IMG/VR virus record: IMGVR_UViG_3300009180_000052
Coordinates: 1 to 53,675 of that record
DNA: 53,675 bases
Reading direction: 5' to 3' (one strand)
Source of the DNA: a virus
Taxonomy: Duplodnaviria > Caudoviricetes
Made by a program: the position numbers and the translations under genes. Positions 11,426-50,118 of this stretch are shown one piece after another (the first letter of the stretch is position 1; every line of letters begins with the position of its first letter). The notes under the pieces were generated by a model. The model was not told where the DNA came from. It saw only the letters and a list, made by a program, of their open reading frames with translations, and made no database searches.

Positions 11426-13025
11426 AAGTACGTGCCATTGTAATGATTGCATTAGTGCTTAAAATAGTTACCGCTACACTGACAGCATTTTGTAATGCTG
11501 ACCTTGTAACTTTTAATGGGTCAATAACACCCATCTCAATCAAGTCACCCATCTGACCTGTCTTCAGATTATACCCGTGACCAACCGGAGTGCTGTCCTT
11601 GTACACATCACTTGGTTTAAGACCTGCGTTAGCCAATATCTGTTGGAATGGAGACATCAGTGCATTGCGAACAATAGCAACTGCTGCATCATACTCAGGA
11701 CTTTGACTTGGTCCTCCAATCTCAGCACTCTCATCAAGTAGTGCCTTGCCCGCACCCGGTAATATCCCTTCCTCAAGTGCAGACCTTACTGCACACACAG
11801 CGTCATCAACCCTGTCGTACAACTCTTTTTGCTCAAGGTCAGTCTGACCACCCACAAATATCACACCTATACCACCCGTAAGTGATGCAATACGCTCCAA
11901 CAAAAAGTCTTTGTCACCTTTCTTAGTCGCTTCTTTGTGTGCGTCCCACAACTGCTTAACCCTTTCGTCAACCATTTTCTCATCAGCTTTAGCTGTACTT
12001 CTGATAATAACAGTTTTGTCTTTGCCAACAATAACTTTACTTGCGTGACCCAAGTCACCATAGTTGATATGGCTTAAGTCATCACCCGTCTTCTCGCTAT
12101 AGTAAGTTGCACCTACACTAATTGCAATGTCCTGCATCAACTCGTGCTGCTTGTAGCCAAAATTTGGCGGAGGCACAGCCACCACTTTCAAATTCCCCTT
12201 AACTGAGTTTGCTGCAAGTGTATTTACCACGTTAGTGTTGCACGGAGAAATAATCAACAGCTTTTTTCCTTCTGATATAATTGGTTTCAACACATTCTCA
12301 ATCTGTAAAATATTAGCTATCTCAATGTCACACACCAAAACCATAGTGTCTTCAAAGACACACTCGTCTTTCTTTTGGTCGTTGATAAACATTGAACTCA
12401 AATACCCTCTGTCAAACTTTAACCCTTTAGTCGTCTCTGCATATGTCTCTGATGTTTGACTACGCTCAACCGTTACAATACCGGTCTTACCCACATCCTT
12501 ATAAACCTCTGCAATAATCCTACCTATCTCTCTGTCATTGTTAGCTGATAATGCCGCCACGTCCAATAGCATTGCACTACTAACCTTCTTTGCCTTACGT
12601 CTTAACTTCTCCACCACCTTATTGCTTATGTCCACCATATGTCTCAGTACCTCCGTTCTGTTCATATCATCTTTGATATGCTCAAGACCACCAAGTACCA
12701 ATCCCTCTGTCAAAACAATAGCTGTTGTCGTGCCATCACCCGCAGCGGTAGCTGTCTTGTCTGCCGCCTCTTTCATCATCTTAACCGCAAGGTTCTCTGA
12801 TGGGTCAATCAAGTCAATTGACTTAGCAACTGTTACACCATCCTTAGTAACTGTGATGCCGTGTGTGTGATGTGGACTCTCAATGAGCACCGTGTTACCA
12901 CTTGGTCCAAGAGTTGACTTAACAGCCTTTGACATCTTGATGACACCACTGATAAGTTTCTTTCTTCCTTCACTTCCGAACTGCAAATCCTTGGGTGAGT
13001 ACCCAATTCCTGATGTTTCTACCAT
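11409..13025 (-). CDS. groEL: Chaperonin GroEL (Cpn60)
   Basis: VKSTLGP, VTKDGVTVAK, AGDGTTTA, FDRGY, GVIDPLKVTRSAL motifs. Start revised to MVETSG (13025), downstream of a TATATTTG element. Confidence 0.95.
   Translation of the reverse strand: MVETSGIGYSPKDLQFGSEGRKKLISGVIKMSKAVKSTLGPSGNTVLIESPHHTHGITVTKDGVTVAKSIDLIDPSENLAVKMMKEAADKTATAAGDGTTTAIVLTEGLVLGGLEHIKDDMNRTEVLRHMVDISNKVVEKLRRKAKKVSSAMLLDVAALSANNDREIGRIIAEVYKDVGKTGIVTVERSQTSETYAETTKGLKFDRGYLSSMFINDQKKDECVFEDTMVLVCDIEIANILQIENVLKPIISEGKKLLIISPCNTNVVNTLAANSVKGNLKVVAVPPPNFGYKQHELMQDIAISVGATYYSEKTGDDLSHINYGDLGHASKVIVGKDKTVIIRSTAKADEKMVDERVKQLWDAHKEATKKGDKDFLLERIASLTGGIGVIFVGGQTDLEQKELYDRVDDAVCAVRSALEEGILPGAGKALLDESAEIGGPSQSPEYDAAVAIVRNALMSPFQQILANAGLKPSDVYKDSTPVGHGYNLKTGQMGDLIEMGVIDPLKVTRSALQNAVSVAVTILSTNAIITMARTYEQQQ
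12346..12361. repeat. 16-bp palindrome GTGTCTTCAAAGACAC (copy 1, inside groEL)
   Basis: Direct read; consensus GTGTCTTYRAAGACAC. Confidence 0.9.
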
Positions 13026-13052
13026 TTCATTAAGTTTAATTTTACTATTGTA

Positions 13053-13060
13053 CAAATATA
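13053..13060 (-). promoter_or_regulatory. Bacteroidota -7 element TATATTTG upstream of groEL
   Basis: Consensus match ~28 nt upstream of the ATG. Confidence 0.6.
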
Positions 13061-13149
13061 GTCAATGCGTGGTATATTAACCACTATTTTAGAAAAATTT
13101 TTATTAACCAAGTATATATTTACCCGTTAGGGTTAAAATGATATTCTGT

Positions 13150-13480
13150 GTTATGTCGGTGTCTATGTCGATATTTCACACATAAATGTCGGTTTATGAC
13201 GATTTTATGTCGGTTTAAAAAAAAACGACATTGACTTAAGTTAATTAGTACCAATGAGTTACACAGTTATCAGCATCTAAATGCCGATAATGCGGAAAAT
13301 TTTCCTATACTTCTATCTATATATTACTACTCTTCTTATTATTTTTATTACTCTATAATCTATTTAAAATCGACATTTTCGACATTAAAATAATAAAGTA
13401 TTAATAATCAATAAGTTAAAAAAATAAAATCGACATAAAATCGACATAAAAACTATACTAAAATGTCGATATTGACATTA
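13150..13480. repeat. CGACAT/ATGTCG iteron-like cluster with AT-rich core and IHF-consensus site; candidate origin or packaging locus
   Basis: ATGTCG at 13153, 13165, 13186, 13207, 13463; CGACAT at 13226, 13371, 13380, 13431, 13442; AATCAATAAGTTA (WATCAANNNNTTR) at 13406-13418. Confidence 0.65.
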
Positions 13481-13486
13481 ATGGGC

Positions 13487-13518
13487 AAAAAGAAACCCAA
13501 CACGCTAATGTTGGGTCT
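13487..13518 (-). terminator. Intrinsic terminator after the 76-aa gene
   Basis: Minus strand GACCCAACAT-TAGC-GTGTTGGGTT followed by TCTTTTT. Confidence 0.65.
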
Positions 13519-13548
13519 GTCAAATGATACTATCCTAAGAGGGGTTCT

Positions 13549-13779
13549 TTAATCCATCTCAGGACCTTCCATCATCTCAGAACGAATGTTACCCAAGTAA
13601 ACAGCCTCAGCCATACGACTTACCTTCTCTGCATTATGCATAGCCTTCTTAACCTGTGCTGCCTTTTGGATTCCTGTCATACTGTTAGGACGATTGTTAA
13701 TCAACATACCATCCTCGATAGTTAAACCGGGACCGGCTTTCTTTTGCTGATAGATACTGTCTTGTAATCTAAGTTTCAT
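13549..13779 (-). CDS. Hypothetical protein
   Basis: 76-aa ORF with A-rich leader and a downstream terminator. Confidence 0.65.
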   Translation of the reverse strand: MKLRLQDSIYQQKKAGPGLTIEDGMLINNRPNSMTGIQKAAQVKKAMHNAEKVSRMAEAVYLGNIRSEMMEGPEMD

Positions 13780-13894
13780 AATAATTTTTTTTGAAGTTTG
13801 AAATATTTCAAGGTAAAGATAAGAAATTTATTAGATGGTTTTAGTGTTTGGGCTATATAGCGGTTTGGCGAAGCGAGCCGTCAACCGGAAGTGA

Positions 13895-14045
13895 CATTTT
13901 TTTTAGGGGGTGGGGGTCTGCTTTCAAAATTTCCGTCCGATATTTTTGGCGTTTTGCTTAGCCACTACGTGCCTGCCTGCCTGCCTTACATTGCGTCCCT
14001 GCATCCTGCCTGCCTGCATCCCCTTTGCCATTGCCTGCATCCCCT
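13895..14045. repeat. GC-rich non-coding tract: T-run, GGGGGTGGGGG and about eight CCTGC repeats at the late/early strand switch
   Basis: Direct read; composition differs sharply from its surroundings. Confidence 0.6.
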
Positions 14046-14051
14046 TCGTTA

Positions 14052-14067
14052 GTGTCTTTGAAGACAC
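14052..14067. repeat. 16-bp palindrome GTGTCTTTGAAGACAC (copy 2)
   Basis: Direct read; intergenic, upstream of the early promoter. Confidence 0.9.
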
Positions 14068-14199
14068 AAAGCCCTAAGAAAGAAGGCTTTATCCCCCTCC
14101 TATTAATATTAAACTTAAACATAGTACGGGATTATCGAAGCCTCAAGCCCTTTATTTGCAAGGGTTTGCGTATAAACAATAAAAAAAAGCAAATATTTA

Positions 14200-14230
14200 T
14201 TTGGTGGAATGGAGTAATAAACTATATTTG
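14200..14230 (+). promoter_or_regulatory. Early promoter, Bacteroidota consensus TTTG-N19-TATATTTG
   Basis: -33 TTTG at 14200-14203, -7 TATATTTG at 14223-14230, first ATG at 14269. Confidence 0.8.
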
Positions 14231-14268
14231 TGAAAGAATTAATCAAATAACAATCAAAATTTAAACAA

Positions 14269-14907
14269 ATGAGTCAATTACTATCAATCGAAACGGCTTT
14301 CTTAAGCCTGCCTCAAGTCAAGCAGGGCTTGAATTTGAGCGAAATTAGGAGCGTGCAAAGGACTATCACCAATGCCAAAAAGAAAAAATTTGAACAAACT
14401 ATTGCCTTGAGTAAGTTAGTTACTACGGCTGTAGATTGGTTTCAGTCGGAGGAAGGGCAAAGAGTTTGCACCGATGAGGGTATTGCTTGGAGCAATGAGG
14501 AGATTGGAAAGAAAGTTTTTGGATGGCAAAAAAGTTTTTTCTACAAAGTAGTGAAAGCAGGACGCCTACAGCCCGAGGTTATCGAGTCGTTCAATGTTAA
14601 GTGCAATGAGGTTGAGGCACAAGGTGAGGAGCCAAATAGAAGCCTTGAGGGTTTATTAAAGTTTGCAAAGCAGGTGGAATCGGGCACCAATGCAGGTGGA
14701 GAAGGCGGAGACGCTGAAAGCGGAGAAAGTGAAAGTGAGCCTCAAGTTGAAACACGTGTTGAAACCATTTTAACTTTCACGTACAAAAGCGAAGGCGGAA
14801 ACGTTTCAGTGAGAATCGATGCGAACGGCTTAGTAAAAACCACAAACAGCGATGAGCAAATCAGGGAGGCAATCGCTGTATTGAATTTCAGTTTACAAAA
14901 TAGATAA
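14269..14907 (+). CDS. Early hypothetical protein (possible HTH: SNEEIGKKVFGWQKSFFYKVVKA)
   Basis: 212-aa ORF, first gene after the early promoter. Confidence 0.75.
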   Translation: MSQLLSIETAFLSLPQVKQGLNLSEIRSVQRTITNAKKKKFEQTIALSKLVTTAVDWFQSEEGQRVCTDEGIAWSNEEIGKKVFGWQKSFFYKVVKAGRLQPEVIESFNVKCNEVEAQGEEPNRSLEGLLKFAKQVESGTNAGGEGGDAESGESESEPQVETRVETILTFTYKSEGGNVSVRIDANGLVKTTNSDEQIREAIAVLNFSLQNR

Positions 14908-14926
14908 CCACTTAAAATTTACCACT

Positions 14927-15805
14927 ATGAACGGAATCATTTATTCAACAACAGGAGAAAGTCGAAGGGGTCAAGTAGCAAGCTACCACTCAAAGCCTTC
15001 GCCATTATTTTTAAACAAAAGCAAACACGCTGTCGATATTGCAGGGCTTAAGCCCGCTCAACAACGTAGTGCAATCAAGTTTGAGGGTGGTGAGTATGAA
15101 TCGAAATTCACTATCGGGTTTGAGGTTGAGAAAAACCAATTAAGCCGTAATGCGGTGAGAGAGTATGAATTATTTTGTGGGTTTGAGCGTGATGGGTCGT
15201 GCGGATACGAAGCCGTTACCCACGTGCTCCCTTTGTTACCTGCAGGTGGGTGGAGGACAAAGGTTTACGATATGATGCACAAAGCCGAAAAGATTATCGA
15301 TGATAGGTTTAGCCCTTCTGATAGGAGATGCGGTGGTCACATCACCATAGCGTGTGAGGGGATGAGTGGTGATGCCTTGAGGGATGCCATCCGTAAAAAT
15401 TGCGGTATTATCCTTGCTCTATTCAAAAAGCGTGTTACTAACAGCTATTGCAGTTACAATAGCAGGATGCAAAATTCAACCGAGTCCACCAATTGGCACC
15501 ACAAGTACCAATTAGCCCTTGTAAAGGGTGGATGCCTTGAGTTTAGGGTTCCGTCTCGCTTTCAGTCAGTTAAGCAAATGATGAGGAGATATGAGCTAAT
15601 GTATGAGATTGTGAGCTACAGCATCGCAACGCCAAATGGCTCCCACGATGGCTTACTTAAGAAAATCAAGCCTATCATTGTTTCAATGTACAACGGCAAC
15701 GAGGATGACGCCAACGAGGTGTTGAGGTTATCAAAGTTATTCAGGGCGTACATTCTGAAAGGTGAGGTGCATCAAGATATTGCACCATACGTGAGAAACT
15801 ATTAA
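14927..15805 (+). CDS. Putative amidoligase (COOH-NH2 ligase, amidoligase_2-like)
   Basis: IGFEVE, ERDGS, YEAVT, CGGHIT and LEFR motifs. Confidence 0.75.
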   Translation: MNGIIYSTTGESRRGQVASYHSKPSPLFLNKSKHAVDIAGLKPAQQRSAIKFEGGEYESKFTIGFEVEKNQLSRNAVREYELFCGFERDGSCGYEAVTHVLPLLPAGGWRTKVYDMMHKAEKIIDDRFSPSDRRCGGHITIACEGMSGDALRDAIRKNCGIILALFKKRVTNSYCSYNSRMQNSTESTNWHHKYQLALVKGGCLEFRVPSRFQSVKQMMRRYELMYEIVSYSIATPNGSHDGLLKKIKPIIVSMYNGNEDDANEVLRLSKLFRAYILKGEVHQDIAPYVRNY

Positions 15806-15813: not shown

Positions 15814-15837
15814 GGGAGTGTCTTCAAAGACACTTCC
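15814..15837 (+). repeat. Palindrome copy 3 (core 15818-15833) extended into a hairpin, immediately 5' of hammerhead 1
   Basis: GGGAGTGTCTT-CA-AAGACACTTCC, with a G-U pair on the + strand. Confidence 0.9.
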
Positions 15838-15888
15838 GCTGTCGGGGGATGGTTATCCTCCCTGATGAGTTCTAAAGAACGAAACAGC
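15838..15888 (+). ncRNA. Type III hammerhead ribozyme 1 (predicted cleavage after GUC at 15843)
   Basis: Stem III GCUGU/ACAGC; stem I GGGGGA/UCCUCC with loop UGGUUA; core CUGAUGA; stem II GUUC-UAAA-GAAC; GAA. Confidence 0.92.
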
Positions 15889-15908
15889 AACCACAAAAAT
15901 GTAATCAA

Positions 15909-16148: not shown

Positions 16149-16718
16149 ATGAGACAGATAACACGAGACATTGTGAACGCTTTTCAGAATAGCCGTTCAC
16201 TACGAATTGACAACAGCAGGACGGATGGTGAGAGTTTATGGCTATTCAACAATAAGATAGCAGAAATTAGGAGGGATGGCTTATGGATAACTAATGCAGG
16301 ATGGAAGAGCAGGACAACAAAGGAAAGATTGAACGGGCTTTCAGGTGTTCATATTCAGAGTGTCAGGGGCAATTGGTTCCTCAATGGCAGGGCTTGGGAT
16401 GGTGGATGGGTGCAGATGGATGCGTGGAATGATGGTGCTGAGTCAGTCCCTGAGGAGAATGTGCAGGAGCCTGAGTTCGATGTGACAAGCGAGTGGATGC
16501 CGGAGGGTTACAGCAAGCCGGTGTATGCGGTGTATCATACGTTATTGGAAGCAGGGTTGAGGGCGGTTGAGATATTGCTAAACGATGTCAATATACCAAC
16601 AAGAAGGGCGGAGTCAGATACTGATGGTGTGTACCGACCTAACTATTTTATAGTTGTACGTCCTGAGGATGTAGACAAGGCGGTTGAAAAGTTATCTGAG
16701 TATTATTGTCTTTCATAG
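16149..16718 (+). CDS. Hypothetical early protein
   Basis: 189-aa ORF; 'GW.SRTTKERLNGL' motif. Confidence 0.75.
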   Translation: MRQITRDIVNAFQNSRSLRIDNSRTDGESLWLFNNKIAEIRRDGLWITNAGWKSRTTKERLNGLSGVHIQSVRGNWFLNGRAWDGGWVQMDAWNDGAESVPEENVQEPEFDVTSEWMPEGYSKPVYAVYHTLLEAGLRAVEILLNDVNIPTRRAESDTDGVYRPNYFIVVRPEDVDKAVEKLSEYYCLS

Positions 16719-16737: not shown

Positions 16738-16761
16738 GGCGGTGTCTTTAAAGACACTGCC
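16738..16761 (+). repeat. Palindrome copy 4 (core 16742-16757) extended into a hairpin, 5' of hammerhead 2
   Basis: GGCGGTGTCTT-TA-AAGACACTGCC. Confidence 0.9.
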
Positions 16762-16812
16762 TCCGTCCCTAAGTGTATGCTTAGGCTGATGAGTCCCAAA
16801 GGACGAAACGGA
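16762..16812 (+). ncRNA. Type III hammerhead ribozyme 2 (predicted cleavage after GUC at 16767)
   Basis: Stem III UCCGU/ACGGA; stem I CCUAAG/CUUAGG with loop UGUAUG; CUGAUGA; stem II GUCC-CAAA-GGAC; GAA. Confidence 0.93.
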
Positions 16813-16855
16813 ATCTTAAACCGAAGGTTTTAAACCCTTCACTAAATCAAATCAA

Positions 16856-17544: not shown

Positions 17545-17611
17545 TTCATTATCAGTTCATTAACAAGGGTTCTATGCCTTCATAGGTATTGCCCACAAAT
17601 CAATTTAGCTT

Positions 17612-18730
17612 ATGTGTGTAATCATTATCAAGCAGACAGGGAAAAAAGTTCCTCAGGAGGTTGCAAAGACCTCAGCACGAATCAATCCCCACGGATTGGG
17701 TATTGTATGGCTCGACACTTTCGAGGTAACGTATCACAAATCAGCAGAATACAAAGTATTGGAGACCGAAAGACCATTCATTGCTCACTTTAGATATGCG
17801 ACTATTGGTGCAGTCAACAAAGAGAACACGCATCCATTCAGATGCGGGAGCAACAAACAAGAGTGGCTTATGATGAACGGCACTATCAGAGCACTTGGTA
17901 ACTTCAAGAAGAGTGACTCAAAAGTATTAGCAGAGAACTTGGGCGAGATACCACGCCACAAATGGAAGAAGGAGTTAGAGCAGTATGAGTGCAGGTTCGT
18001 GTCAGTTAACACGCACAGCAGGACATACCAAATTTACAATAAAGAGTTGTGGACTCAAAGAGATGGCGTATGGTATAGCAAGGACAATGTCATTGAGGAC
18101 AATTTAATCGCTGTCTACGGCACGTTAAAGAAAGGGTACAGCAATTACCATAGCTATCTTAGTTCCTCCAAATTTATAGCCAAAGGCAACACGAAGAGCA
18201 AGTATCCGCTTGTCATCAGTGGACTACCTTACTTGATTGAGAAGAGTGGACAAGGTCATCACGTGGAGGTGGACATATTCAAAGTCAGTTCAGGTGTATT
18301 TGCTCAGTTAGATAGGTTGGAGGGTCATCCTGATTGGTACCGGAGGAAGCAGGTTGATGTGACTACTAAGAACGGAGTGCTTAAGTGTTGGATATACTTC
18401 AACATACGTGAGACAGCAGACGGCAAAGAGCATCATAAGACATACACGCAGAAGGCAAAGCCTTATAGTTTTTGGGAGAAGGAGGATGAGAAAGAGAGTG
18501 AAAAGTATGTAAGCATATTCAGTAACTACGGGTACGAGGAGCCGAAGAGTGTGTTCTTAACAAGTATATTGGATGAGGAGTGTGATGATTGTGAGTTTGA
18601 CATAGAGAATGAGAAGCCTATATGTGTCAATTGCTTTCACGATTTAGAGCACGATATGTTCGCAAATTATCATTGTAGTGGTTGCGATGAGTGGTTCACT
18701 GAGTCTGAGGTTTTACGATTCCGACCTTAG
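17612..18730 (+). CDS. Class II glutamine amidotransferase fused to gamma-glutamylcyclotransferase (AIG2-like) and a C-terminal Zn ribbon
   Basis: N-terminal Cys (MCVIII), NPHGLG, AHFRYAT, NTHPF, NGT; GGCT motifs VYGTLKKG..N and LDRLEG; C-terminal CxxC...CxxC. Confidence 0.85.
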   Translation: MCVIIIKQTGKKVPQEVAKTSARINPHGLGIVWLDTFEVTYHKSAEYKVLETERPFIAHFRYATIGAVNKENTHPFRCGSNKQEWLMMNGTIRALGNFKKSDSKVLAENLGEIPRHKWKKELEQYECRFVSVNTHSRTYQIYNKELWTQRDGVWYSKDNVIEDNLIAVYGTLKKGYSNYHSYLSSSKFIAKGNTKSKYPLVISGLPYLIEKSGQGHHVEVDIFKVSSGVFAQLDRLEGHPDWYRRKQVDVTTKNGVLKCWIYFNIRETADGKEHHKTYTQKAKPYSFWEKEDEKESEKYVSIFSNYGYEEPKSVFLTSILDEECDDCEFDIENEKPICVNCFHDLEHDMFANYHCSGCDEWFTESEVLRFRP

Positions 18731-18740: not shown

Positions 18741-18768
18741 AGGGTGGTGTCTTCAAAGACACTGCCCT
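18741..18768 (+). repeat. Palindrome copy 5 (core 18747-18762) extended into a hairpin, 5' of hammerhead 3
   Basis: AGGGTGGTGTCTT-CA-AAGACACTGCCCT with G-U pairs. Confidence 0.9.
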
Positions 18769-18819
18769 CCGTATCGGGATGAGTTGTCCCGACTGATGAT
18801 TCTGAAAAGATGAAACGGA
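18768..18819 (+). ncRNA. Type III hammerhead ribozyme 3, variant (GUA cleavage after 18773; U-U at the base of stem II)
   Basis: Stem III UCCGU/ACGGA; stem I UCGGGA/UCCCGA with loop UGAGUUG; CUGAUGA; U-UCU-GAAA-AGA-U; GAA. Confidence 0.82.
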
Positions 18820-18857
18820 AAATTTATTAAATTTAACAAACATTAAAACCACTAAAA

Positions 18858-21209: not shown

Positions 21210-21854
21210 ATGGAAAAGAAACTTCCGGTTTTTGAAAGGCTATCCGCCATCAACGTCAATGAGCACGTTGAAAAGAAAAGCAATCTAACTTATTTATCTT
21301 GGGCTTGGGCTTGGTCAAAAACAAAGACCGAGTGTCCTGATGCCACGTACAAAATCTTAGAGACTGAGTATGACGAGGCTCTTGGATTTATGTGCCACAC
21401 TAATGTAACCATCGAGGGCGAGACGCTTGAGATGTGGTTGCCGGTGATGGATGGTGCGAACAAGTCAATGAAGAAGATAGCGTATAGTTATAGCTCACGC
21501 TATGGCGATAAGCAAGTTGATTCTGCGACTACGTTCGACATTAACAAAACCATTATGCGTTGCTTAGTTAAGAACTTAGCGATGTTTGGGTTGGGGATTT
21601 ATATCTATGCCGGTGAGGATTTACCTGAGGGAGAGACACACTATAAGGCTGAGGCTCCTAAGAAGACAGCAGTTGCAACAGCAGATGGGTTGACTGACTT
21701 AAAGAAGGGTACTGACAATTGGGATGCGGTAATCAAGTACGTAACAGCTAACAAGTCTTTAGGTATTGAGAAGATTGGAGCACAAATTACACGCAAGTAC
21801 AAGGTGAGCCCTACATTAAAGAAAGAAATTGCTAACCTAATAACAGCATCGTAA
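21210..21854 (+). CDS. Sak/DUF1071 ssDNA-annealing protein (Rad52-like)
   Basis: VEKK.NLTYLSWAWAW, MWLPVMD, DINKTIMRCLVKNLAMFGLG.YIYAGEDLP. Confidence 0.88.
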   Translation: MEKKLPVFERLSAINVNEHVEKKSNLTYLSWAWAWSKTKTECPDATYKILETEYDEALGFMCHTNVTIEGETLEMWLPVMDGANKSMKKIAYSYSSRYGDKQVDSATTFDINKTIMRCLVKNLAMFGLGIYIYAGEDLPEGETHYKAEAPKKTAVATADGLTDLKKGTDNWDAVIKYVTANKSLGIEKIGAQITRKYKVSPTLKKEIANLITAS

Positions 21855-22600
21855 TGGAAAAGCAAGTATCAGAAATTATAACGTTGCTCAGAGATGACAA
21901 CGAGTATTACAATGGGTATGGCAAGAACTATTTATCTAATTCAGATATTGGTGTGTTACTTAGCAATCCTCAGGACTTCGGTAAGGAGCGAGAAGACAAC
22001 AAAGCATTTATGGATGGCAGATACTTTCATCAGCTAATATTGGAGCCTGAGAAGGCAAAGGGTATGCCATCAGTAGACGTAAGTACACGTACTACTAAAG
22101 AGTATAAGGCATTCTGCGAAACCAATAACTTACCATTTTGTATGTTAAAGAAGGAGCAAGACGAGATTCAAAACCTTGTTAGTATTATCAACGGGAACAT
22201 TGCGTTCTATGATGAGATTTATAAAGCAGGTAATGAGTATGAGACTCCGGCAGTTGCAGAGATTCAAGGTATGATGTGGAAGGGGAAGGCTGACATTGTC
22301 ACTGACAATGCTGTGATTGACCTTAAGACTACGAGTGACATTCATAAGTTTAAGTACACAGCAAAGCAGTACAATTATGATTCTCAGTGCTATATTTATC
22401 AGGAGTTATTTGGTAAGCCATTGGTGTTCTACGTTATTGACAAAGGCACCGGAGTACTTGGTATTTTTAGACCAACAGAAGACTTTGTAAAAGGTGGCGA
22501 AATCAAAGTAGGCAAAGCAATTGAGGTGTATAACAAATACTTTAGTTCTAAGCCAACGGATGATATAGTGAACTACTACATTGACGAATATTTATTATAA
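21854..22600 (+). CDS. RecE/DUF3799-like PD-(D/E)XK exonuclease
   Basis: LSNSDI, G..FH.LILEP, KGKAD, IDLKTT, Y.YD.Q..IY. Confidence 0.8.
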   Translation: MEKQVSEIITLLRDDNEYYNGYGKNYLSNSDIGVLLSNPQDFGKEREDNKAFMDGRYFHQLILEPEKAKGMPSVDVSTRTTKEYKAFCETNNLPFCMLKKEQDEIQNLVSIINGNIAFYDEIYKAGNEYETPAVAEIQGMMWKGKADIVTDNAVIDLKTTSDIHKFKYTAKQYNYDSQCYIYQELFGKPLVFYVIDKGTGVLGIFRPTEDFVKGGEIKVGKAIEVYNKYFSSKPTDDIVNYYIDEYLL

Positions 22601-22620
22601 TATTGCATCCCCCGAAGCAA

Positions 22621-22636
22621 GTGTCTTCAAAGACAC
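22621..22636. repeat. Palindrome copy 6, 4 nt upstream of the tRNA-like element
   Basis: GTGTCTTCAAAGACAC. Confidence 0.9.
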
Positions 22637-22640
22637 AGGG

Positions 22641-22749
22641 AGTCAGGTGGCGGAGTGGTAGACGCAACCGTTAACGGATAAGTTCGTGCAGACGTGTACC
22701 TACGGTGTTATATCCTAAACAAATACAGGTTCGATTCCTGTCCTGACTA
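22641..22749 (+). tRNA. tRNA-like element with intact acceptor, D and T arms but no canonical anticodon arm
   Basis: Acceptor AGTCAGG/CCTGACT plus A; D arm GCG-GAGTGGTAGA-CGC; T arm ACAGG-TTCGATT-CCTGT; 58 nt between the D and T arms with no 7-nt anticodon loop; no CCA directly after the discriminator. Confidence 0.75.
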
Positions 22750-22825
22750 CAACCAATTGTTAACTTAGCCTCAGAGTTTAATGATTGGTATAAATAGACT
22801 GAGGCAAACAATAAATTTAAACACT

Positions 22826-23125
22826 ATGGCACAAGATGAAAAAATCTTTGCAGACGGATTCTCATTTAAGAGAAACGAAAAAGCCCCCGACTTTGTAGTT
22901 GGGCGATTATCAATCAAGGCAGAAGATGGAGTAGCCTTCATCAGACAGCACGAGAAAGGTGGGTGGGTTAACCTCAACATTAAGACTGCACGCAGTGGCA
23001 ATCATTACGTTGAGTTGGATACCTACGAGCCAACACAAAGTGGGGCGAAGCCTCAGTCAGAACCTAAACCAAAGGCACAGCCTAAGGTAGAGGATGCCGA
23101 AGATGGCGATGAACTTCCATTTTAG
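22826..23125 (+). CDS. Probable single-stranded DNA-binding protein
   Basis: Beta-rich small domain, P/K/Q linker and acidic tail ending DGDELPF; start revised to MAQDEK. Confidence 0.7.
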   Translation: MAQDEKIFADGFSFKRNEKAPDFVVGRLSIKAEDGVAFIRQHEKGGWVNLNIKTARSGNHYVELDTYEPTQSGAKPQSEPKPKAQPKVEDAEDGDELPF

Positions 23126-23194: not shown

Positions 23195-23352
23195 ACGAAA
23201 ATGTCGATGTGTTTTCCCTATATTCTCTATAGGGGTTTTTATATTCTTTATTATTTTTTTAAATTAATAATTGAACTTAAAATCGACATAATCGACATAA
23301 GTATTAGTAATCAGATAGTTAGATAGTTTAAAACGACATAAAACCGACATAA
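23195..23352. repeat. Second CGACAT iteron-like cluster, upstream of the primase-helicase
   Basis: ATGTCG at 23201; CGACAT at 23284, 23293, 23334, 23345; AT-rich core; IHF-like AATCAGATAGTTA. Confidence 0.65.
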
Positions 23353-35500: not shown

Positions 35501-37955
35501 CTTGAGAATACTTCTCTGCAAAGTCAAATAATAAATCGCTTAACTTTTTAGTATCAGCCTGAGGACTAACTGACAAAGTCATATTGAACGATGGTTCAAA
35601 CTTCTTATCCCATAAACCACGCTTAGTATCTTTAAACTGAACAGCCACACCATCCACTTGTGCAACTGAGTCGATAATCTCCTGCTTGGTATCATTTAAT
35701 ATTTGAGTCTCCGCAGTTTTTATTTTAGCAAGAACTTTAGGGTCTTTCTTTTTAGCGTATTGCTTAACAAGTTTATCATAGTTCAATGACAACTTCTTAA
35801 TCCTTTCAGTAATTGGACTAAATCCACGCACTGTAGCCGGAGTAATAAGGGCAGAGACGTCTCTAACAAACTTAGGTGCTTGTGTCTTTGAAGACACTTG
35901 CTGTGATTGTTTCCATTTCTTAAACCCTTCTATATCTGCTTTATTACCTAAGATATGAATTTGTTCGCTATTTGGTACTGAATATATCTTTTCCCCACCC
36001 ATTACCTCACTTGTTGTTCCATCTACTCCTTCATTCAAAACAAATCCTTCTCCTAAATTATTTACATTAAGAATAACCGGATATAAATTTTCTCCATATT
36101 GAACGTTATCTTTTGTTTTAGAAAAATCAAAAAGATTACCTGTTTCTTTATTTCTTTTGGTATCATCAAACTCTTCAAACTTTTCATTGCTTCTATGATA
36201 TACTATGTCTTTTACTTTGCTATTTGGAAATATAGATTTAAGATAATTTGCATATTCTTGTTCAGTTCCTATATCTGATAAATTATTATTAGTATTGTGA
36301 ACCTCTTTAATTGGTGGCGTTACTTCTTGCGTCCCACTTTCAGGAGCGACTTCTTGGGTCCCTGTGGCAGCGACTTCAAGTCCTTGGTCTCCTTCGACCA
36401 CTTGCTGCAATCCCACTTCGGGTTGTTCTGTGCGTAGCACGCTTTCATCTGTTGTTTGTTCTTGAATGGCATCTTGTTCTGTTTTAATTGGTTTACCAAT
36501 AACTTTATATGTAGTAGGTTTATATGGGTCTTCAGGCTCTACCTCTTCAACTGAAAACTCAATCTTTTTATATGTACTTGAAAGGTTTTTAATTATACCT
36601 TCTGCTTGTTCTTTAGTTATATCATCCTGTGCAAGTTCAAGATTCCCGTCAGTAGATTCCATAAAATTATACTCTGCACTACCATAAGCTAAAGTCCTTG
36701 GCTTAGATTGCTCAAGAATATTAATAGTTTCTACAAACTTTTTATTGTTAGAATCTACTTGCTCTACTTTCCCTTTTACATCTTGTATTGACTTATCTAA
36801 CTGCTCTTTTTCCTCTGTTGTTGTAGCCCTTGCTCTTCTTCCTAATAAAGCCGTAAGCACACCATTCATTATTGCACCAACAGTTCCGCCAACTGCAGAA
36901 GCGTTACCAACACCGTCAAGTATTTCTTTTGTCGTACCATAAATTTGATTGGCACTTACATTCTCATATATATTCTGAATACCTTCAGTGATGGCTTCTT
37001 CGGAACCGCCAATAACCGCTCTTTTTAAAATTTCAACTCCTTTATTCCCTACCAACGCCCTGTCTAATCTCTTAAACAACCCGTCTACAGGAAGCATTTC
37101 TATTGGGTAGGAAACCAACGCATTTTGAATAGCATAAGTTAATGCTTCATTTTCTGTAGCCCCTTCATTTTTAGCTTGCTCATAAGATGGTGCAGCTACT
37201 TGAGAAATTGTTAACGCACCTTGAGGCGTAGCCATTCTTGATGCCAACCCCTTACCATAGTTTATAACTGACTCAAGTTTTGTTCCTTTCTTTGCTGCAG
37301 CCATAGCTACTGTTTTGGCTCCTCCTGCTGTAAATCCTGATAGAATAATTGGAACCATTTCACCAATAGCCTTTGCAGTTTGTCCCCAAAAACCACTTGA
37401 AATATCTTTATCCGTTGGGATTACTTCATCTAATAATTTTTTGTATTCTTGAGCACCCTTGTATATGGTAAACTTTGAAGCATCGGACTCTTCTACTGCT
37501 CCCGTCTTGGCTATTAAATTTTTTATTCCTGCAGTTGCTATTGATGCTGTTTCTAAAACATCTGCAGGGAATTTAACCGCACCCTTTCCTGCCGTCTTAA
37601 GTAAATCTCCTACAATATACCCAACGCCCTTACCTTCAAACTCGTCTGCGGGCTTATATTCTTTTGTTCTTTGCAAACCCGTCATCCCCATTGGACCAAC
37701 AATAACTGTTTCAGTAGGTTTTTGTGAAGCCAAAGAACCATTTGCCAAAGGAGATTCCGTACCGACTTTTTTTTTACCAACTAAAGATGAAAAGTCATCA
37801 GGCGTTTTTTGGTAACCTTTTTCTTTTACGTATGAATACATATCGTTAAAGACTTCATTATCGCTATGAAGTAACTGAACAAACTCTCCTTTACTTTTTG
37901 CATAACCTTTTGAGACTGCTCTACTATATAAGTCATCAATTACTTGTTCGTCCAT
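29547..37955 (-). CDS. Giant internal-virion/ejection (polyvalent) protein, 2802 aa
   Basis: Position at the end of a podovirus-like structural operon; helical and A/G-rich segments; embedded enzyme-like modules (see findings). Confidence 0.75.
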   Translation of the reverse strand: MDEQVIDDLYSRAVSKGYAKSKGEFVQLLHSDNEVFNDMYSYVKEKGYQKTPDDFSSLVGKKKVGTESPLANGSLASQKPTETVIVGPMGMTGLQRTKEYKPADEFEGKGVGYIVGDLLKTAGKGAVKFPADVLETASIATAGIKNLIAKTGAVEESDASKFTIYKGAQEYKKLLDEVIPTDKDISSGFWGQTAKAIGEMVPIILSGFTAGGAKTVAMAAAKKGTKLESVINYGKGLASRMATPQGALTISQVAAPSYEQAKNEGATENEALTYAIQNALVSYPIEMLPVDGLFKRLDRALVGNKGVEILKRAVIGGSEEAITEGIQNIYENVSANQIYGTTKEILDGVGNASAVGGTVGAIMNGVLTALLGRRARATTTEEKEQLDKSIQDVKGKVEQVDSNNKKFVETINILEQSKPRTLAYGSAEYNFMESTDGNLELAQDDITKEQAEGIIKNLSSTYKKIEFSVEEVEPEDPYKPTTYKVIGKPIKTEQDAIQEQTTDESVLRTEQPEVGLQQVVEGDQGLEVAATGTQEVAPESGTQEVTPPIKEVHNTNNNLSDIGTEQEYANYLKSIFPNSKVKDIVYHRSNEKFEEFDDTKRNKETGNLFDFSKTKDNVQYGENLYPVILNVNNLGEGFVLNEGVDGTTSEVMGGEKIYSVPNSEQIHILGNKADIEGFKKWKQSQQVSSKTQAPKFVRDVSALITPATVRGFSPITERIKKLSLNYDKLVKQYAKKKDPKVLAKIKTAETQILNDTKQEIIDSVAQVDGVAVQFKDTKRGLWDKKFEPSFNMTLSVSPQADTKKLSDLLFDFAEKYSQDAFILETESELHDEWVDGKINTPLSEKDSNGLTNYPQIIYTFAEPITDEQLSDLSVELENNGISAFNINNNELQVSVIFTQDQDINLTKDEQYEERKRDYKSRLESTENAVFSVFGSNGNGSLDIRIKKSSYQGATNEGTDDQTRQYDRSDVLKAFQESTTKVETLAVELADLRQKEIDLQKEGKKLSPEDQTRFNDLIKKVQPVVQRTFEANKKLYEDAKAEVEGIAQDAISKVDASISPFPIKRAERASVKAIRWYNAFTEKLGDGSRVNIVVDTDANADKVFKIIDKKYPGDTGVRRITETTDLGYPKRLIEIRTSNGTIAEIQVITNEAYLAKDGIKGFTGNEKQKATAKQKLDAVRARLGWNIPDGLGHYFYEIQRDTNVDDTLRDEAARLSDLYYDGFTNPKSTLAESFMNDVEAFKNNVDAADKSQWDVGNNGKAPQSLIDYKPVQAEAVLMIEEEQFVPMKVSDVKNDAFTKDNAIDYIEDEKDTDSGRTVTYISSLTVEARNIDGEPIGTITKLTDEDKIFSFTATDIDGNEINFDGFETLGEAKQALADKNNKIQKKEFDKEQKKQAKEKAKVEAKKAKAKAKAQPTVEEQVTGALDDLLALDPNDKTTLKKISNSLDQVIKDIDKFEKENLGVNIALPIMKTIIKAIKVLVDAGVVLQDAIKRVAKDNNVNSRDVIDGINAISQISPIQSQYDALMVKADELIARQKSRNIADAKIVSNLDTFIRNSDIYKESNDAQKKIMERESRLKMGVSAKRAVSIGRVLGALKDITNISREEKMLVIKQIRDLSRDAAKELAKDIREMASKGKITSIQAANIVSRFGKVNMLNEISVSNFVDYMAKVFANAEYADKIDVAKSKLKMAKKNIVTKIGIADGLVGKLNQLFSMNPTLIPNEYLGRYLELVDMFGARQAVLTLDEKSAVTKDVQAILDEIDNEQSKADELADRFNASENKVFKDDELDYAASIKKMLDGKEIDEKEAETMRKYKEDIAPQVEETELTEDELATERKELTDAVKKSTIDGSGLSTKDERDTVKELSRLIGTDAVDGLTNTELKNLLKVIDNINNNYLPHYGEIMLEKLDGINNDKVLTNAVEKGKMYKFSQLYSKVKAAVAMQGRTGVLEMIRRNPLFYIDQLFGNFKTKEIFNSLFNEPAKAVAIFKNQLNRVQNILEKAEQKVSKSFKLDPNKTTMSKFKMMTYMVQLEFESNKGNKEVNPASEYLKATIKHIDAGKSRFGERDAEMLQKILNEFAPDGNIDNEKLYNSFNQAEKDAIKDIRGINESLREKAEFTAAIIRGDRIDPLNNYVHLNVLHEYQPNDLTSGSAFVTEYNNAMRPSTKAKSLIARTGKVSPLNFDVFASAQRGAKFVLMDYNLTRPIRTARKTINGTIANLESKGRVPKEKRQIINAINAAFEETIEGLLTNTFTQDSFFDIASDYISRQGYRAVLAGTSRFISELSSNIGFAVISDPKALATGVKYRGVIMSSDAPMIMENLKSKQTNRIFPTDTLSGRLVDTSILGQASGIRGAVSKNPVKNKIQQIYNLSGKKYVNAVELQADALISTPDKVTMRPMWFGAFANQFLNITGKEVDFDKIAANDEAYMEENKEALDKATELADERSVMVGATDNPFMGILKGTVKPDQSSSLKAFNNFNNFMTKFLIFEYVTARTAINAAVGNGSLTKEQGGAVLGAVATRMVLYGLVLQMMGTGLMGLFFDDDEPETEKSFMQKLGQAFASAFSSLLIGRDFGNAIKNVLNYGIEEANEKYLDFLREGEYDPYKDGIAYTLIPRDDSRQTDLGKLLMNMGGSYTPALNTAALIFKKATEKEKVQEEAIARSERELKVRVPLEVLGNAGLIPLYKDIRKAVMKDMYKDLEKAEKTKGDKKKVESEKLQGFKNQEDMKRYDYDLWYRTFGPDAVDFDAKQAEKAIKKTKDSLERAMKDEMYDYTPKSKKGFGSSGFGGTQSKSKGGFGTSKFGKN
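35882..35897. repeat. Palindrome copy 8 (inside the 2802-aa CDS)
   Basis: GTGTCTTTGAAGACAC on the + strand. Confidence 0.9.
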
Positions 37956-47351: not shown

Positions 47352-47352
47352 T

Positions 47353-48276: not shown

Positions 48277-48287
48277 ATCTTAAATTT

Positions 48288-49226
48288 TTATGGATTTTGT
48301 TCTTGTTGTTCTTTCGCCATACTAAATTGTGTAACCTCAGTCTCACGAATAGATACACCACAATACTGAAGAATCCTTGTAATTAACTTATATTCATCTT
48401 CAGGAGGCAGTTCAAAGTCTTGATAATCATTTTGAGATTGGTCAAACACCGGCTCACCATTAGTAAGTGTTATATATGTCCATTTTGGAACTGCAGGATA
48501 CCTAAAATAGGTTGATTCTACTTGCCCCTTATTACTTATAGTTGTAGGATAAAAAGTCAATTCTGAGCCTTGTAATGCGTAAACAGGGAACTCATTTGTT
48601 GGTTGCGTTAAATTTGAATTAACCAACAACGTAAGTTTATTATTAATTACCTTTTCCGCTTGAACATTAGTAGATGAAGAAAAAACTCCATAAGAGTTTG
48701 CAGAAGCTAAAAATATATTTGAGTCTAATGCTAATACGGTATTACTAACTACTGATGTTACGGTAGATACTAAGCCTGTTGTTATGTTAGTAACAACGTC
48801 ACCTGCTGAAATATCATCTGATAAAAATGTAGCAGTACTATCAACTAACTGACTACTAACTACGGATGTATTTGTTCCTGTTTTCAATGTAACCGGTCTA
48901 CACTTAACGTCCAATAACATATAAGTATAATAACCTGTTGTCGCAGGAGTAGGCATTGAGAATTTGTTAGCAGCTATTTTTGTTAAATAGTCTGTTCGTA
49001 GAAAATATTCTAATACTTCTGCTGTTGGTTGTTCCATATCAGCATAGTCTACACCCGACAATCGAGCATTTTCTGCATTTATAACCTTATTGTAACTATT
49101 AAAATACTCCTCATAAATTTCCATCTGTGCATTTTGAGCATACAGATTGAAATCAGAAGGAGAGATATATCCATAGTTGTTCTTATTCAACACAGACAAT
49201 ACCGCATTTCTTACTGAGTTTATCAT
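48288..49226 (-). CDS. Probable head-tail adaptor/ring protein
   Basis: Start revised to MINSVRNAVL; NKNNYGYISP.DFN.YA..AQ, Y.RYP..P.W.Y, DFELP, IL.Y.GVSIRE. Confidence 0.6.
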   Translation of the reverse strand: MINSVRNAVLSVLNKNNYGYISPSDFNLYAQNAQMEIYEEYFNSYNKVINAENARLSGVDYADMEQPTAEVLEYFLRTDYLTKIAANKFSMPTPATTGYYTYMLLDVKCRPVTLKTGTNTSVVSSQLVDSTATFLSDDISAGDVVTNITTGLVSTVTSVVSNTVLALDSNIFLASANSYGVFSSSTNVQAEKVINNKLTLLVNSNLTQPTNEFPVYALQGSELTFYPTTISNKGQVESTYFRYPAVPKWTYITLTNGEPVFDQSQNDYQDFELPPEDEYKLITRILQYCGVSIRETEVTQFSMAKEQQEQNP

Positions 49227-49239
49227 TAGTTCTTTTTTA

Positions 49240-49280
49240 CAAATATACATAAAAAAAAGAGGGCACAATCAGTACCCTCT
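49240..49280 (-). terminator. Intrinsic terminator followed by a TATATTTG promoter element
   Basis: Minus strand AGAGGGTAC-TGATT-GTGCCCTCT plus T-run, then TATATTTG at 49247-49240. Confidence 0.7.
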
Positions 49281-49313
49281 CTAACCTATCAATCTATCAA
49301 TAACCAAATATAT

Positions 49314-50057
49314 CTACGACAAAGTTGCTTCTAACATTTTTAGCGAATCTATGCCTTCATCACTTTGTAAGAAATGGGCTACCATACTAAAAGGGTCTTC
49401 TCCAAAAGGAACCGACAACATCTTCTTTTTATTAGTAGCTGTATTAAACCATACTTCTTTCTCGCCATTTCTTAATACCAATAACTTGTTTTCAAAAAAT
49501 GTACGGACTTTGGCTTGGAATTTTAATTCAGGGTCATTCAATATATTTAAAAACTCTCTTGGGTCTCTTTTAGCAAATACCAATATATCACGCTTTAACT
49601 CAGCAGTAGATACGGTAGATGGGTCTTTACCAAACATCACTCTTGTTAGAGTTTCAATTTGGTCAAGTGTAAGCTGACGAGCCTCCACTAAGGCATCAAC
49701 TTCAATGTTTAAATCTTCAACCTCAGCACTTGCGTCTTTCTCTTTGTCTATTTCAACAAAAATATTGCCATTTAATGGATGGTAATGTAAAAACTGCTGT
49801 AGTACGGGGTTTGTTCTTGGCACTCTTAAGAACCCATCTTCAAAGATGATTGGTTCAATAATAGCATTCCCATCTTGTTCGTCCTCGAAAGGAGACTTCT
49901 GATTTATGGAATACCTAAGAGCACGGTTTTGGTTGTTTTTCTCGTCAAACCACATTAGTGGGAATCGAGGATGGTTTCTTGACGCTAACGTATATGATAG
50001 CGGATTACCTATTTTTAATCTGTAAACTTTATCTACAGAAGATATAACTTTTGACAT
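49314..50057 (-). CDS. Hypothetical protein downstream of the capsid gene
   Basis: RALRY..NQKSPF.DEQ, I.FEDG.L.V, LQ.FL..HP motifs. Confidence 0.7.
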   Translation of the reverse strand: MSKVISSVDKVYRLKIGNPLSYTLASRNHPRFPLMWFDEKNNQNRALRYSINQKSPFEDEQDGNAIIEPIIFEDGFLRVPRTNPVLQQFLHYHPLNGNIFVEIDKEKDASAEVEDLNIEVDALVEARQLTLDQIETLTRVMFGKDPSTVSTAELKRDILVFAKRDPREFLNILNDPELKFQAKVRTFFENKLLVLRNGEKEVWFNTATNKKKMLSVPFGEDPFSMVAHFLQSDEGIDSLKMLEATLS

Positions 50058-50085
50058 TTTTATAAGATTTAATTTGATTTAATTT

Positions 50086-50118
50086 AAAAAAAGGAGAGTG
50101 TCTTTGAAGACACCCTCC
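50086..50118 (-). terminator. Capsid-gene terminator whose stem contains palindrome copy 9 (50098-50113)
   Basis: Minus strand GGAGGGTGTCTT-CA-AAGACACTCTCC followed by T7. Confidence 0.8.

Follow-up and report, generated by a model that had tools for sequence, protein, structure and literature searches.

A 16-nt palindrome at the gene junctions and inside genes of a tailed phage, and its association with RNA hairpins, hammerhead ribozymes and tRNA-like elements

The palindrome and the genome that carries it

The subject of this analysis is a 16-nt palindrome, GTGTCTTYRAAGACAC, that recurs throughout the virus record IMGVR_UViG_3300009180_000052. The window, by which we mean the whole stretch of DNA that was analyzed, is the entire record of 53,675 nt; it is estimated to be 89% complete, and a motif scan of it is therefore genome-wide for this record. 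Its G+C content is 37%, and its map of open reading frames (ORFs, called with a simple longest-ORF rule) together with family scans identifies it as the genome of a tailed phage. The genes are arranged in a minus-strand block at 5-13.8 kb, with a GroEL-like chaperonin among its products; a plus-strand early/replication block at 14.2-29.4 kb, encoding a glutamine amidotransferase (GATase)/GGACT fusion, a Sak-type annealing protein, a PDDEXK exonuclease, a primase/helicase-like protein of 807 amino acids (aa) and an SNF2/ResIII helicase; and a minus-strand virion block at 29.5-53.7 kb, which encodes proteins 2802, 1630 and more than 1708 aa long.

The palindrome is found exactly at nine positions (12346, 14052, 15818, 16742, 18747, 22621, 27950, 35882 and 50098), against a mean of 0.00 matches in 100 dinucleotide-preserving shuffles. 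When the center is left free and up to two mismatches are allowed, the same nine sites and no others are recovered (0.26 expected); in other words, the window holds no copies that are recognizable by sequence as degenerate at this tolerance. An earlier note on this DNA, made from the sequence alone, had described nine dispersed copies far beyond chance, three of them inside coding sequences (CDSs), and the ORFs of the window bear out both the count and the peptide readings (VFEDT in the groEL-like and helicase genes, VSSKT in the giant virion protein), while the spacings that it gave between copies follow correctly from the coordinates. The central pyrimidine-purine (YR) step that it had pointed out holds in all 164 exact copies of 80 related loci, where the step is CA 85 times, TG 58 times, TA 20 times and CG once, and never purine-pyrimidine. 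The higher density near the strand switch, which it had also remarked on, simply tracks the early operon, where genes are short and hairpins stand at their junctions. The copies in the window are as follows:

12346-12361, minus strand: copy 1, inside the groEL-like CDS 11409-13055(-); TGT GTC TTT GAA GAC ACT reads C-VFEDT; sense center TG
14052-14067, no strand assigned: copy 2, intergenic, flanked by ORF 13549-13779(-) and, on its other side, the divergently oriented first early gene at 14269(+)
15818-15833, plus strand: copy 3, downstream of the stop codon of ORF 14927-15805, forming the core of GGGA-core-UUCC (hairpin 15814-15837); -15.2 kcal/mol
16742-16757, plus strand: copy 4, downstream of the stop codon of ORF 16149-16718, forming the core of the hairpin GGCG-core-UGCC; -17.0 kcal/mol
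18747-18762, plus strand: copy 5, downstream of the stop codon of ORF 17612-18730, forming the core of the hairpin GGGUG-core-UGCCC; -18.2 kcal/mol
22621-22636, plus strand: copy 6, downstream of the stop codon of ORF 21854-22600 (exonuclease-like), 4 nt 5' of a tRNA-like element
27950-27965, plus strand: copy 7, inside the SNF2/ResIII helicase-like CDS 26776-28227; AGT GTC TTC GAA GAC ACT reads SVFEDT
35882-35897, minus strand: copy 8, inside the 2802-aa CDS 29547-37955(-); reads VSSKT; sense center CA
50098-50113, minus strand: copy 9, core of GGAGgGUGUCUUCAAAGACACuCUCC (hairpin 50086-50118), followed by U7, after the gene of a 472-aa virion protein, 50137-51555(-)
17574-17589, plus strand: a tenth copy that has diverged in sequence, ATGCCTTCATAGGTAT; it belongs to the 5' leader of the gene for the GATase/GGACT fusion (start codon at 17612, ATG), and the hairpin is kept

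A search with the 807-aa primase-like protein returned 335 relatives among viral contigs. The related loci used here are the best 80 of these 335, at 79-96% identity to that protein, and whole genomes were compared between the window, five complete relatives that bear the palindrome and five complete relatives that do not. The five palindrome-bearing relatives hold 9-12 exact copies each, and in the five palindrome-free relatives no copy of GTGTC-N6-GACAC was found apart from one variant. Primase identity overlaps between the two groups, at 82-96% with the palindrome and 80-86% without.

A DNA search found no close cultured relatives of the window. Because phages of Flavobacterium, Cellulophaga, Polaribacter and Maribacter, all of them distant, are its nearest cultured kin by protein (alongside one uncultured record), the host is likely a member of the Bacteroidota. 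A scan of bacterial genomes for the CA-centered form of the 16-mer gave scattered single matches in diverse taxa, with no host repeat family or array-like cluster among the 120 genomic stretches listed. The only multi-match contigs, again among the matches listed, were a 56-kb contig from the bin of a Cytophagales metagenome-assembled genome (MAG; L138/L167, WTJX01000555.1), with five copies, and one of 32 kb from the bin of a Flavobacteriaceae MAG (L190), with two. Both are probably relatives of the window phage that were binned with bacteria, and they give a weak hint at the host group.

Hairpins, ribozymes and tRNA-like elements at gene junctions

Read as RNA, the core GUGUCU-UYRA-AGACAC would form a hairpin with a 6-bp stem and a 4-nt loop. 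The core alone is predicted at -5.6 kcal/mol, and at the ribozyme-linked copies a variable outer stem extends it to 10-12 bp. Five of the six intergenic copies in the window directly precede a presumed source of RNA 3' ends, namely a hammerhead ribozyme (three copies), a tRNA-like substrate of RNase P (one) or a run of U (one). The idea of the earlier note that the palindromes are reused as RNA stems is right. Copies 3, 4 and 5 (at 15818, 16742 and 18747) each stand 0-1 nt 5' of a type III hammerhead, with CUGAUGA...GAAA in their 3' flanks. The three ribozymes are given below with their scores in R1, our own covariance model of the ribozyme alone, to whose seed the window copies belong:

15836-15890, plus strand: hammerhead ribozyme 1, type III; predicted cut after GUC, 15843/15844; Rfam Hammerhead_3 45.9 bits, E 1.3e-7; R1 71.2 bits
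16763-16811, plus strand: hammerhead ribozyme 2, type III; predicted cut after GUC, 16767/16768; R1 73.1 bits (16758-16815); in Rfam a weak Hammerhead_1 match only (16780-16821; 21.2 bits, gathering 34)
18766-18821, plus strand: hammerhead ribozyme 3, type III; predicted cut after GUA, 18773/18774; Rfam Hammerhead_3 35.6 bits, E 1.1e-4; R1 74.0 bits

For the window and its relatives, 43 distinct units of hairpin plus ribozyme were aligned. The catalytic core CUGAUGA ... GAAA is invariant in all 43, CUGACGA variants aside, and the cleavage triplets of the window (GUC, GUC and GUA) are of the NUH form. Over the three hammerhead stems and the hairpin, 97.3% of the cells are paired, compared to 36-47% in slid controls, and both sides of a pair have changed in 173 cells compared to 43 in shuffles, with none of 500 shuffles reaching 173. 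Such double changes occur at all six pairs of stem I, at three of the four pairs of stem II and at three of the five pairs of stem III, in keeping with three helices of which stem III is open; the 10.1-11.1 position is unpaired in 13 of the units. Judged by these alignments the hammerheads are real, and self-cleavage is predicted. R1 identifies 20 hammerheads (E <= 1.8e-13) in the window and the five complete palindrome-bearing relatives, and none in the five complete palindrome-free relatives. A hairpin precedes every one of the 20; it has the palindrome core in 17 (one of which overlaps the start of R1 and was assigned by eye) and is an unrelated G+C-rich hairpin in 3. About 18 further ribozymes with unrelated hairpins were identified in the 80 loci, by eye rather than by model. 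Because 3 of the 20 hammerheads follow unrelated hairpins, the generic module would be a hairpin plus a hammerhead, with the palindrome as its usual but non-obligatory hairpin. The predicted cuts fall 10-11 nt past the 16-nt core and leave the extended hairpin with a 5-6-nt tail on the upstream RNA. Relatives of the phage also occur in four RNA-library runs from four studies, as contigs only, which span the early region.

Separately, several relatives carry a second hammerhead-like motif, GGUUAA CUGAUGAG-hairpin-CGAAA, whose first strand overlaps the TAA stop of the upstream gene (L040 3688 and 4517, L047 1986 and 2336, L063 3911, L079 3627, L031 3203), and which may represent a hammerhead of type I or type II.

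At copy 6, the place of the ribozyme is taken by the following element:

22641-22749, plus strand: tRNA-like element with acceptor stem and T arm; Rfam tRNA 42.1 bits, gathering 29

Despite this score we call the element tRNA-like, because a 30-nt insert replaces its anticodon loop and because ARAGORN calls no tRNA at 22641-22749; it is presumed to be a substrate of RNase P. Relatives have minimal tRNA mimics 3' of the palindrome (L053 2529-2590, L056 2946-3005, L075 1394-1450), which have no D or anticodon arms, consist of an acceptor stem of 7 bp plus a T arm containing GGTTCGAGTC, and look like bare RNase P substrates that serve as cut sites. In several other relatives, the position of the tRNA-like element, 3' of the palindrome and after the exonuclease gene, is occupied by a conserved structured RNA (..AGCCUCAG AGG .. 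AAUAGA CUGAGGC..; L012 9319-9390, L010 9392-, L017 2119-, L036 8000-, L070 9339-, L074 4223-), for which the example at L012 9319-9390 matches no Rfam family. In one RNA library, the summed contig depth within 22592-22905 is 858 over the tRNA-like element and ~8-136 elsewhere in that stretch, and many contigs skip 47-96 nt within the element; the high depth could stem from a stable RNA, or from cross-matching tRNAs of other organisms.

Copy 9, finally, forms an 11-bp stem (-18.2 kcal/mol) that is followed by U7 on the minus strand, and looks like an intrinsic terminator. A copy occupies the same position in the relatives G001-G004.

Two features point to a hairpin that acts as RNA on the sense strand. 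First, the center is strongly biased when read in the sense direction: in exact copies that lie between two ORFs of one strand (14 ambiguous copies were excluded), CA occurs 74 times, TA 14 times, TG 9 times and CG once. With duplicates removed, CA outnumbers TG by 31 to 1 in the hammerhead-linked class and by 32 to 6 in the class without a ribozyme. Second, in 86 unique copies the six positions outside the core hold 70 G-U pairs versus 27 A-C mismatches, and the pair that adjoins the core alone holds 24 versus 2. The leader of the GGACT gene adds an orthologous comparison. Among 22 sequences matched by pattern search, 14 have the exact palindrome in the very 16-nt slot that ATGCCTTCATAGGTAT occupies in the window, and among the eight non-canonical versions, those of the window (17574-17589), L009, L064 and L020 keep the hairpin by compensatory change; in the window this took two compensatory changes and one change from G-C to G-U.

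The RNA role of the hairpin is thereby well supported by its anatomy and by the comparison of relatives, and is the best-shown part of the picture rather than a secondary one. The earlier note had argued for a DNA-level site rather than only an RNA hairpin; its claim that the sequence itself is selected stands, and its ranking of the RNA role has to be revised in view of the strand-biased center (CA 74 versus TG 9) and the G-U pairs of the outer stems. Its suggestion of an organizer of the parS or matS type fares worse, given that a symmetric DNA site predicts no strand bias.

Constraint on the core and the early protein p212

Five of the seven pairs of the core are invariant in the 43 units, while the adjoining ribozyme stems covary freely. 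Inside the helicase gene the palindrome is held at synonymous sites. Among 41 unique sequences that code for [SG]VFEDT, codon entropy in the palindrome is 0.35 bits for S (2.17 for S nearby), 0.76 bits for V (1.41-1.48 for V nearby), 0.46 bits for E and 0.17 bits for D (0.76-0.93 for D nearby), and it is 1.80 bits at the T codon just outside the palindrome. The palindrome-free genome G006 codes SVFEDT with GTA, which breaks the palindrome. The earlier note had named synonymous-site conservation in relatives as the property whose absence would speak against its proposal, and the helicase copy does have this conservation. Its presence also goes along with that of other copies: among the 40 loci with at least 6 kb of upstream sequence, 27 have two or more upstream copies, and 23 of these carry the helicase palindrome; of the 13 with fewer, 2 carry it. 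In L006 and L055, all intergenic copies are relaxed variants, and the helicase copy is relaxed too.

The copy in the giant gene is exact in relatives though its flanks cannot be aligned, and its sense center is CA or TA in all nine minus-strand giant-gene copies listed. In the groEL-like gene the peptide CVFED[TV] occurs in 11 of 11 genomes, and palindromic codons are used only in G000, G003 and G005, i.e., in three of the six palindrome-bearing genomes; the groEL copy is facultative. On this comparative evidence the core sequence appears to be under selection beyond its pairing. Because the core is constant, synonymous sites are kept within genes, and the palindrome is present or absent genome-wide together with the early module, we infer that a trans-acting, lineage-specific factor reads it.

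The early module consists of seven genes, the first of which, next to copy 2, encodes the 212-aa protein p212:

14269-14907, plus strand: first early gene, p212 (212 aa); present in six of six genomes with the palindrome and in none of five without

The window and each of the five complete relatives with the palindrome encode the 212-, 53-, 104-, 292- and 372-aa early proteins; those of 189 and 93 aa occur in four of these five relatives. In the five palindrome-free genomes the proteins of the module are absent or represented by remote matches of 23-28%, with the exception of the 104-aa protein, which has a 51% match. Such remote matches aside, the 292-aa protein (14927-15805(+)) and the 372-aa protein (17612-18730(+)) are thus confined to palindrome-bearing genomes; the latter combines a class-II glutamine amidotransferase-like N-terminus (a weak match) with a gamma-glutamyl cyclotransferase-like GGACT domain (E 1.6e-22).

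Three candidate binders had been proposed in the earlier note. Two of these, the winged helix-turn-helix (wHTH) protein at 10178 and the protein at 20839 that resembles the C-terminal domain (CTD) of DnaA, are poor candidates: both occur in all ten relatives, including the five palindrome-free genomes, where they have 43-77% identity. The third, p212, has held up well, following the palindrome across the genomes as listed above and being predicted to form a symmetric homodimer. Its dimer score is 0.57, compared to 0.02 for the best control, with contact agreement between runs of at least 96% and a predicted local distance difference test (pLDDT) value of at least 80, a mark reached by 20 of 30 proteins solved as one-chain pairs and by 1 of 23 solved as single chains. 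The p212 model itself has a pLDDT of 83.7 and weakly resembles DNA-binding domains of KorB and Spo0J, with Z scores of 5.2, 4.8 and 4.7 over 84-97 aligned residues. Foldseek found no structural match in the PDB at E <= 0.001. In the ESM Atlas, p212 is placed with DUF3102 clusters at 0.91, with just 133 of 256 features shared, which is a weak lead, and a profile search returned 282 relatives, none of them with a name. Neither Pfam nor PHROGs matched a ParB-type domain among the proteins scanned, which were a subset of the ORFs. On the strength of these models and its distribution, p212 is our lead candidate for the factor that reads the palindrome.

The region from which the early operon diverges also contains a copy. 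In all six palindrome-bearing genomes a copy adjoins the p212 gene, with a symmetric TA center in three of them. In the window this is copy 2, which lies 133 nt upstream of a promoter match at 14200-14230(+), the only full match in the region; the pattern, the Bacteroidota promoter consensus, has 8 matches in the window versus 3.9 expected. A second hairpin (AAAGCC..GGCTTT) follows copy 2 at ~14068-14098. Copy 2 may be outside the early transcript and is on that account the best candidate for a DNA-level operator. Just upstream of it, at 13970-14017, stand about 12 imperfect TGCC/CCTG units, in place of which relatives have pyrimidine-rich tracts.

Other repeats were noticed in the same part of the genome. 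The heptamer TCGACAT occurs 12 times in the window versus 3.5 times expected; six copies fall within 300 bp (13165-13469), in an A+T-rich non-coding region between the groEL-like gene and ORF 13549, and three lie just upstream of the primase-like gene (23201-23298). An 11-nt tandem repeat is found at 13424-13451. These repeats look like iterons or a shared promoter element, and are a better candidate for an origin or organizer site than the palindrome is. In the virion block, residues 1034-1221 of the 2802-aa protein match a PDB chain of Tas1, a (p)ppApp-synthesizing interbacterial effector (E 7.5e-5), and may be an ejected enzyme domain.

Explanations, known systems and significance

The explanation we favor, to which we assign a probability of about 0.58, is that the palindrome is the constant core of a hairpin that punctuates the polycistronic mRNAs of the phage, and that it is also recognized by a lineage-specific trans-acting factor. 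At gene junctions, the hairpin directly precedes an element that would generate an RNA end, so that the upstream mRNA would keep a stable hairpin at its 3' end, often lengthened by the variable G+C-rich outer stem. The hairpin would probably also stack on the short stem III of the ribozyme and shield it from misfolding. A symmetric dimer of p212 would read the core either as duplex DNA, as an operator or roadblock in the manner of KorB, or as an RNA hairpin in the manner of lambda N or the histone stem-loop-binding protein (SLBP); we lean slightly towards the arms GTGTC/GACAC being read as DNA, with the loop under selection at the RNA level. This explanation builds on the observed anatomy, covariation, strand bias and co-occurrence, and adds to them 3'-end protection and in vivo cleavage, which we infer; both the protection and the stacking or insulation of stem III draw on established knowledge of RNA decay and ribozyme folding.

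Several observations weigh against this explanation. As for its RNA side, all three hammerheads of the window score below the Rfam gathering thresholds (48.5 for Hammerhead_3), and the first pair of stem II in ribozyme 3 is an unpaired U/U. The RNA-library contigs run across the predicted cleavage sites, but contigs of this kind do not resolve RNA ends and could also come from DNA. In the helicase and groEL copies the sense-strand center is the rarer TG, and no RNA role is evident for either. As for the reader, the whole seven-gene early module co-occurs with the palindrome and p212 is not singled out within it; its likeness to KorB and Spo0J falls below the caution line that the tool sets for helical proteins; and it has no family match in PHROGs or Pfam and belongs to no recognizable nucleic-acid-binding family, with profiles against PDB sequences giving nothing meaningful. 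The core is also not fixed everywhere, as L006, L016, L055 and L028 retain only GTGTC-N6-GACAC, and since the relatives share ancestry, the counts given here overstate the number of evolutionary events.

A more specific form of the favored explanation is that one and the same p212 dimer reads the palindrome twice: as a DNA throttle or roadblock at the junctions and within the three long genes, and as an RNA mark that protects the 3' ends made by hammerheads and tRNA mimics. We regard this as a tentative idea that is more probably wrong than right. If true, it would provide a self-contained, phage-encoded counterpart of the logic of the histone stem-loop and SLBP or of lambda N and boxB, built around catalytic RNA.

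The palindrome could instead be purely a DNA site, consisting of operators or of sites like parS or OB for a symmetric dimer such as p212, with the RNA hairpins as by-products that were lengthened later. The arms are perfectly two-fold, the invariant GTGTC-N6-GACAC spacing puts the half-sites on one face of the helix, and the central step is always YR. Such a site would also suit the copies within three CDSs and the synonymous constraint on the one in the helicase gene, the copy in the divergent promoter region beside the p212 gene, upstream of the early promoter match, and the predicted p212 homodimer with its weak likeness to a KorB/Spo0J fold. However, a symmetric dimer leaves the strand bias of the center unexplained, as it does the excess of G-U on the sense strand, the placement 0-1 nt before the hammerheads in 17 of 20 cases and the compensatory replacement of hairpins at an orthologous site, and no ParB-type domain turned up among the proteins scanned. 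We consider this explanation unlikely, the strand bias making a DNA-only site insufficient.

Conversely, the hairpin could act purely as an RNA structure without any trans-acting factor, capping 3' ends and insulating ribozymes, in which case the identity of the sequence would reflect common descent and the duplication of modules. That 3 of 20 hammerheads use unrelated hairpins is readily understood on this account, as are the change of sequence with retention of the fold at window site 17574 and the inner-position changes tolerated in several genomes. It does not account for a core that stays identical while the adjoining ribozyme stems diverged and covaried, for exact copies in genomes whose primase-like protein is only 82% identical, for the synonymous constraint on in-CDS copies and their genome-wide co-occurrence with intergenic ones, or for a giant-gene copy that is exact despite unalignable flanks. 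The invariant core and the in-CDS copies thus make a structure-only RNA insufficient, and we hold this explanation to be rather improbable.

Much less weight is given to the remaining possibilities. The palindrome might mark the boundaries of shuffled gene cassettes, as a short repeat at which related phages recombine and which persists with the modules, much like the promoter/stem-loop cassettes known from T4-type phages. Relatives do differ greatly in which genes their early regions contain, copies stand at gene junctions, and the products of the phage include a Sak-type annealing protein as well as a PDDEXK exonuclease; yet 16 nt is very short for homologous exchange, and the in-CDS copies, the strand bias and the terminator copy at a capsid gene go unexplained, which makes a boundary function very unlikely. 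It is scarcely probable that the palindrome acts as a hairpin in single-stranded DNA on the lagging-strand template, as a signal for priming or packaging whose strand bias follows replication. Judging from the ORF map, the gene blocks could be co-oriented with forks from the divergent region, so that orientation alone cannot separate RNA from single-stranded DNA, but the G-U pairs, the U-runs and the contact with ribozymes and tRNA-like elements follow an RNA logic, and the primase-like protein is equally present in palindrome-free genomes. A decoy or target RNA, such as a mimic of a host hairpin like a CRISPR repeat (in the manner of RNA anti-CRISPRs, Racr) or the site of a hairpin-specific endoribonuclease, would explain why one hairpin is transcribed in many copies, and solitary repeat units are known in phages (PMC10651486), but with only 16 nt conserved, no array-like cluster among the 120 stretches listed, and in-CDS copies that do not fit, we regard it as highly implausible. 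A virion RNA polymerase with hairpin promoters or terminators was considered and dropped, as the four large virion proteins have no DxDGD motif and no family match.

The system shares parts of its logic with several known ones. In phage T7, the polycistronic early mRNA is cut by RNase III at intergenic hairpins, which stay on the upstream 3' end and stabilize it. Here, too, a hairpin would be left on the 3' end of the upstream message, but the predicted cut is made by a self-cleaving RNA or at a tRNA-like element, 5-6 nt past the extended hairpin, whereas in T7 a host enzyme cuts within the hairpin. The OB sites of KorB on plasmid RK2 and the parS sites of ParB are dispersed copies, about ten in number, of a short perfect palindrome, some of them within genes, which are read by a dimeric helix-turn-helix protein encoded nearby. 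The palindrome resembles them in its number of dispersed copies and its presence in genes, and differs in that no ParB-type domain was found in the proteins scanned, the likeness of p212 is weak (Z 4.7-5.2), and the sites are strand-biased and tied to RNA-processing elements. Enterobacterial repetitive extragenic palindromic (REP) sequences and bacterial interspersed mosaic elements (BIMEs) are imperfect palindromes repeated at the 3' ends of genes, where they stabilize the upstream mRNA; proteins read them as well, which keeps their sequence conserved. REPs, however, are chromosomal, extragenic and mobilized by RAYT transposases, whereas the present element belongs to a phage and has three of its nine copies in CDSs; being neither purely extragenic nor enriched in bacterial genomes among the matches listed, it does not qualify as a REP. 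Further parallels are found in mitochondrial transcripts, where tRNAs mark the cut sites, in histone mRNAs, where SLBP binds a sequence-conserved hairpin of 6 bp and 4 nt a few nucleotides before the processing site, and in phage lambda, where the product of the first early gene, N, reads the repeated boxB hairpin. These three are analogies of logic only and imply no homology.

Hammerheads themselves have been described from phages before. In phage and prophage operons, several may flank the genes of one transcription unit, and such arrays have been proposed to process long phage transcripts into mRNAs the length of a gene (Perreault et al. 2011, PMC3088659). The window shares with those cases the multiple intergenic hammerheads in one transcription unit. 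The available text of that paper describes no conserved upstream hairpin, whereas here all 20 ribozymes follow a hairpin, 17 of them one with the invariant 16-nt core; the present core is moreover found apart from ribozymes, within CDSs and as part of a terminator. Our literature search found no description of phage punctuation by hairpin plus hammerhead or tRNA-like element, and the supplementary alignments of Perreault et al., which lay outside that search, might show such hairpins. A 2019 review (PMC6765202) still calls the function of bacterial and phage hammerheads an open question.

As a cautionary case, the palindrome illustrates that a perfect palindrome in the DNA of a gene may be more than a protein site. 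The group of phages that carries it looks common in freshwater data, judging from the 335 relatives and the RNA-library contigs from four studies. It also offers a compact natural system, in which every ribozyme is coupled to a hairpin and most hairpins have one invariant core, in which tRNA mimics replace ribozymes at some junctions, and which close relatives either have or lack as one complete block. Because the system is compact and comes and goes as a block, the function of the hairpin can be tested by swapping cores, ribozymes and the candidate protein, and the set of hairpins and ribozymes may supply natural insulator parts for the genetics of Bacteroidota.

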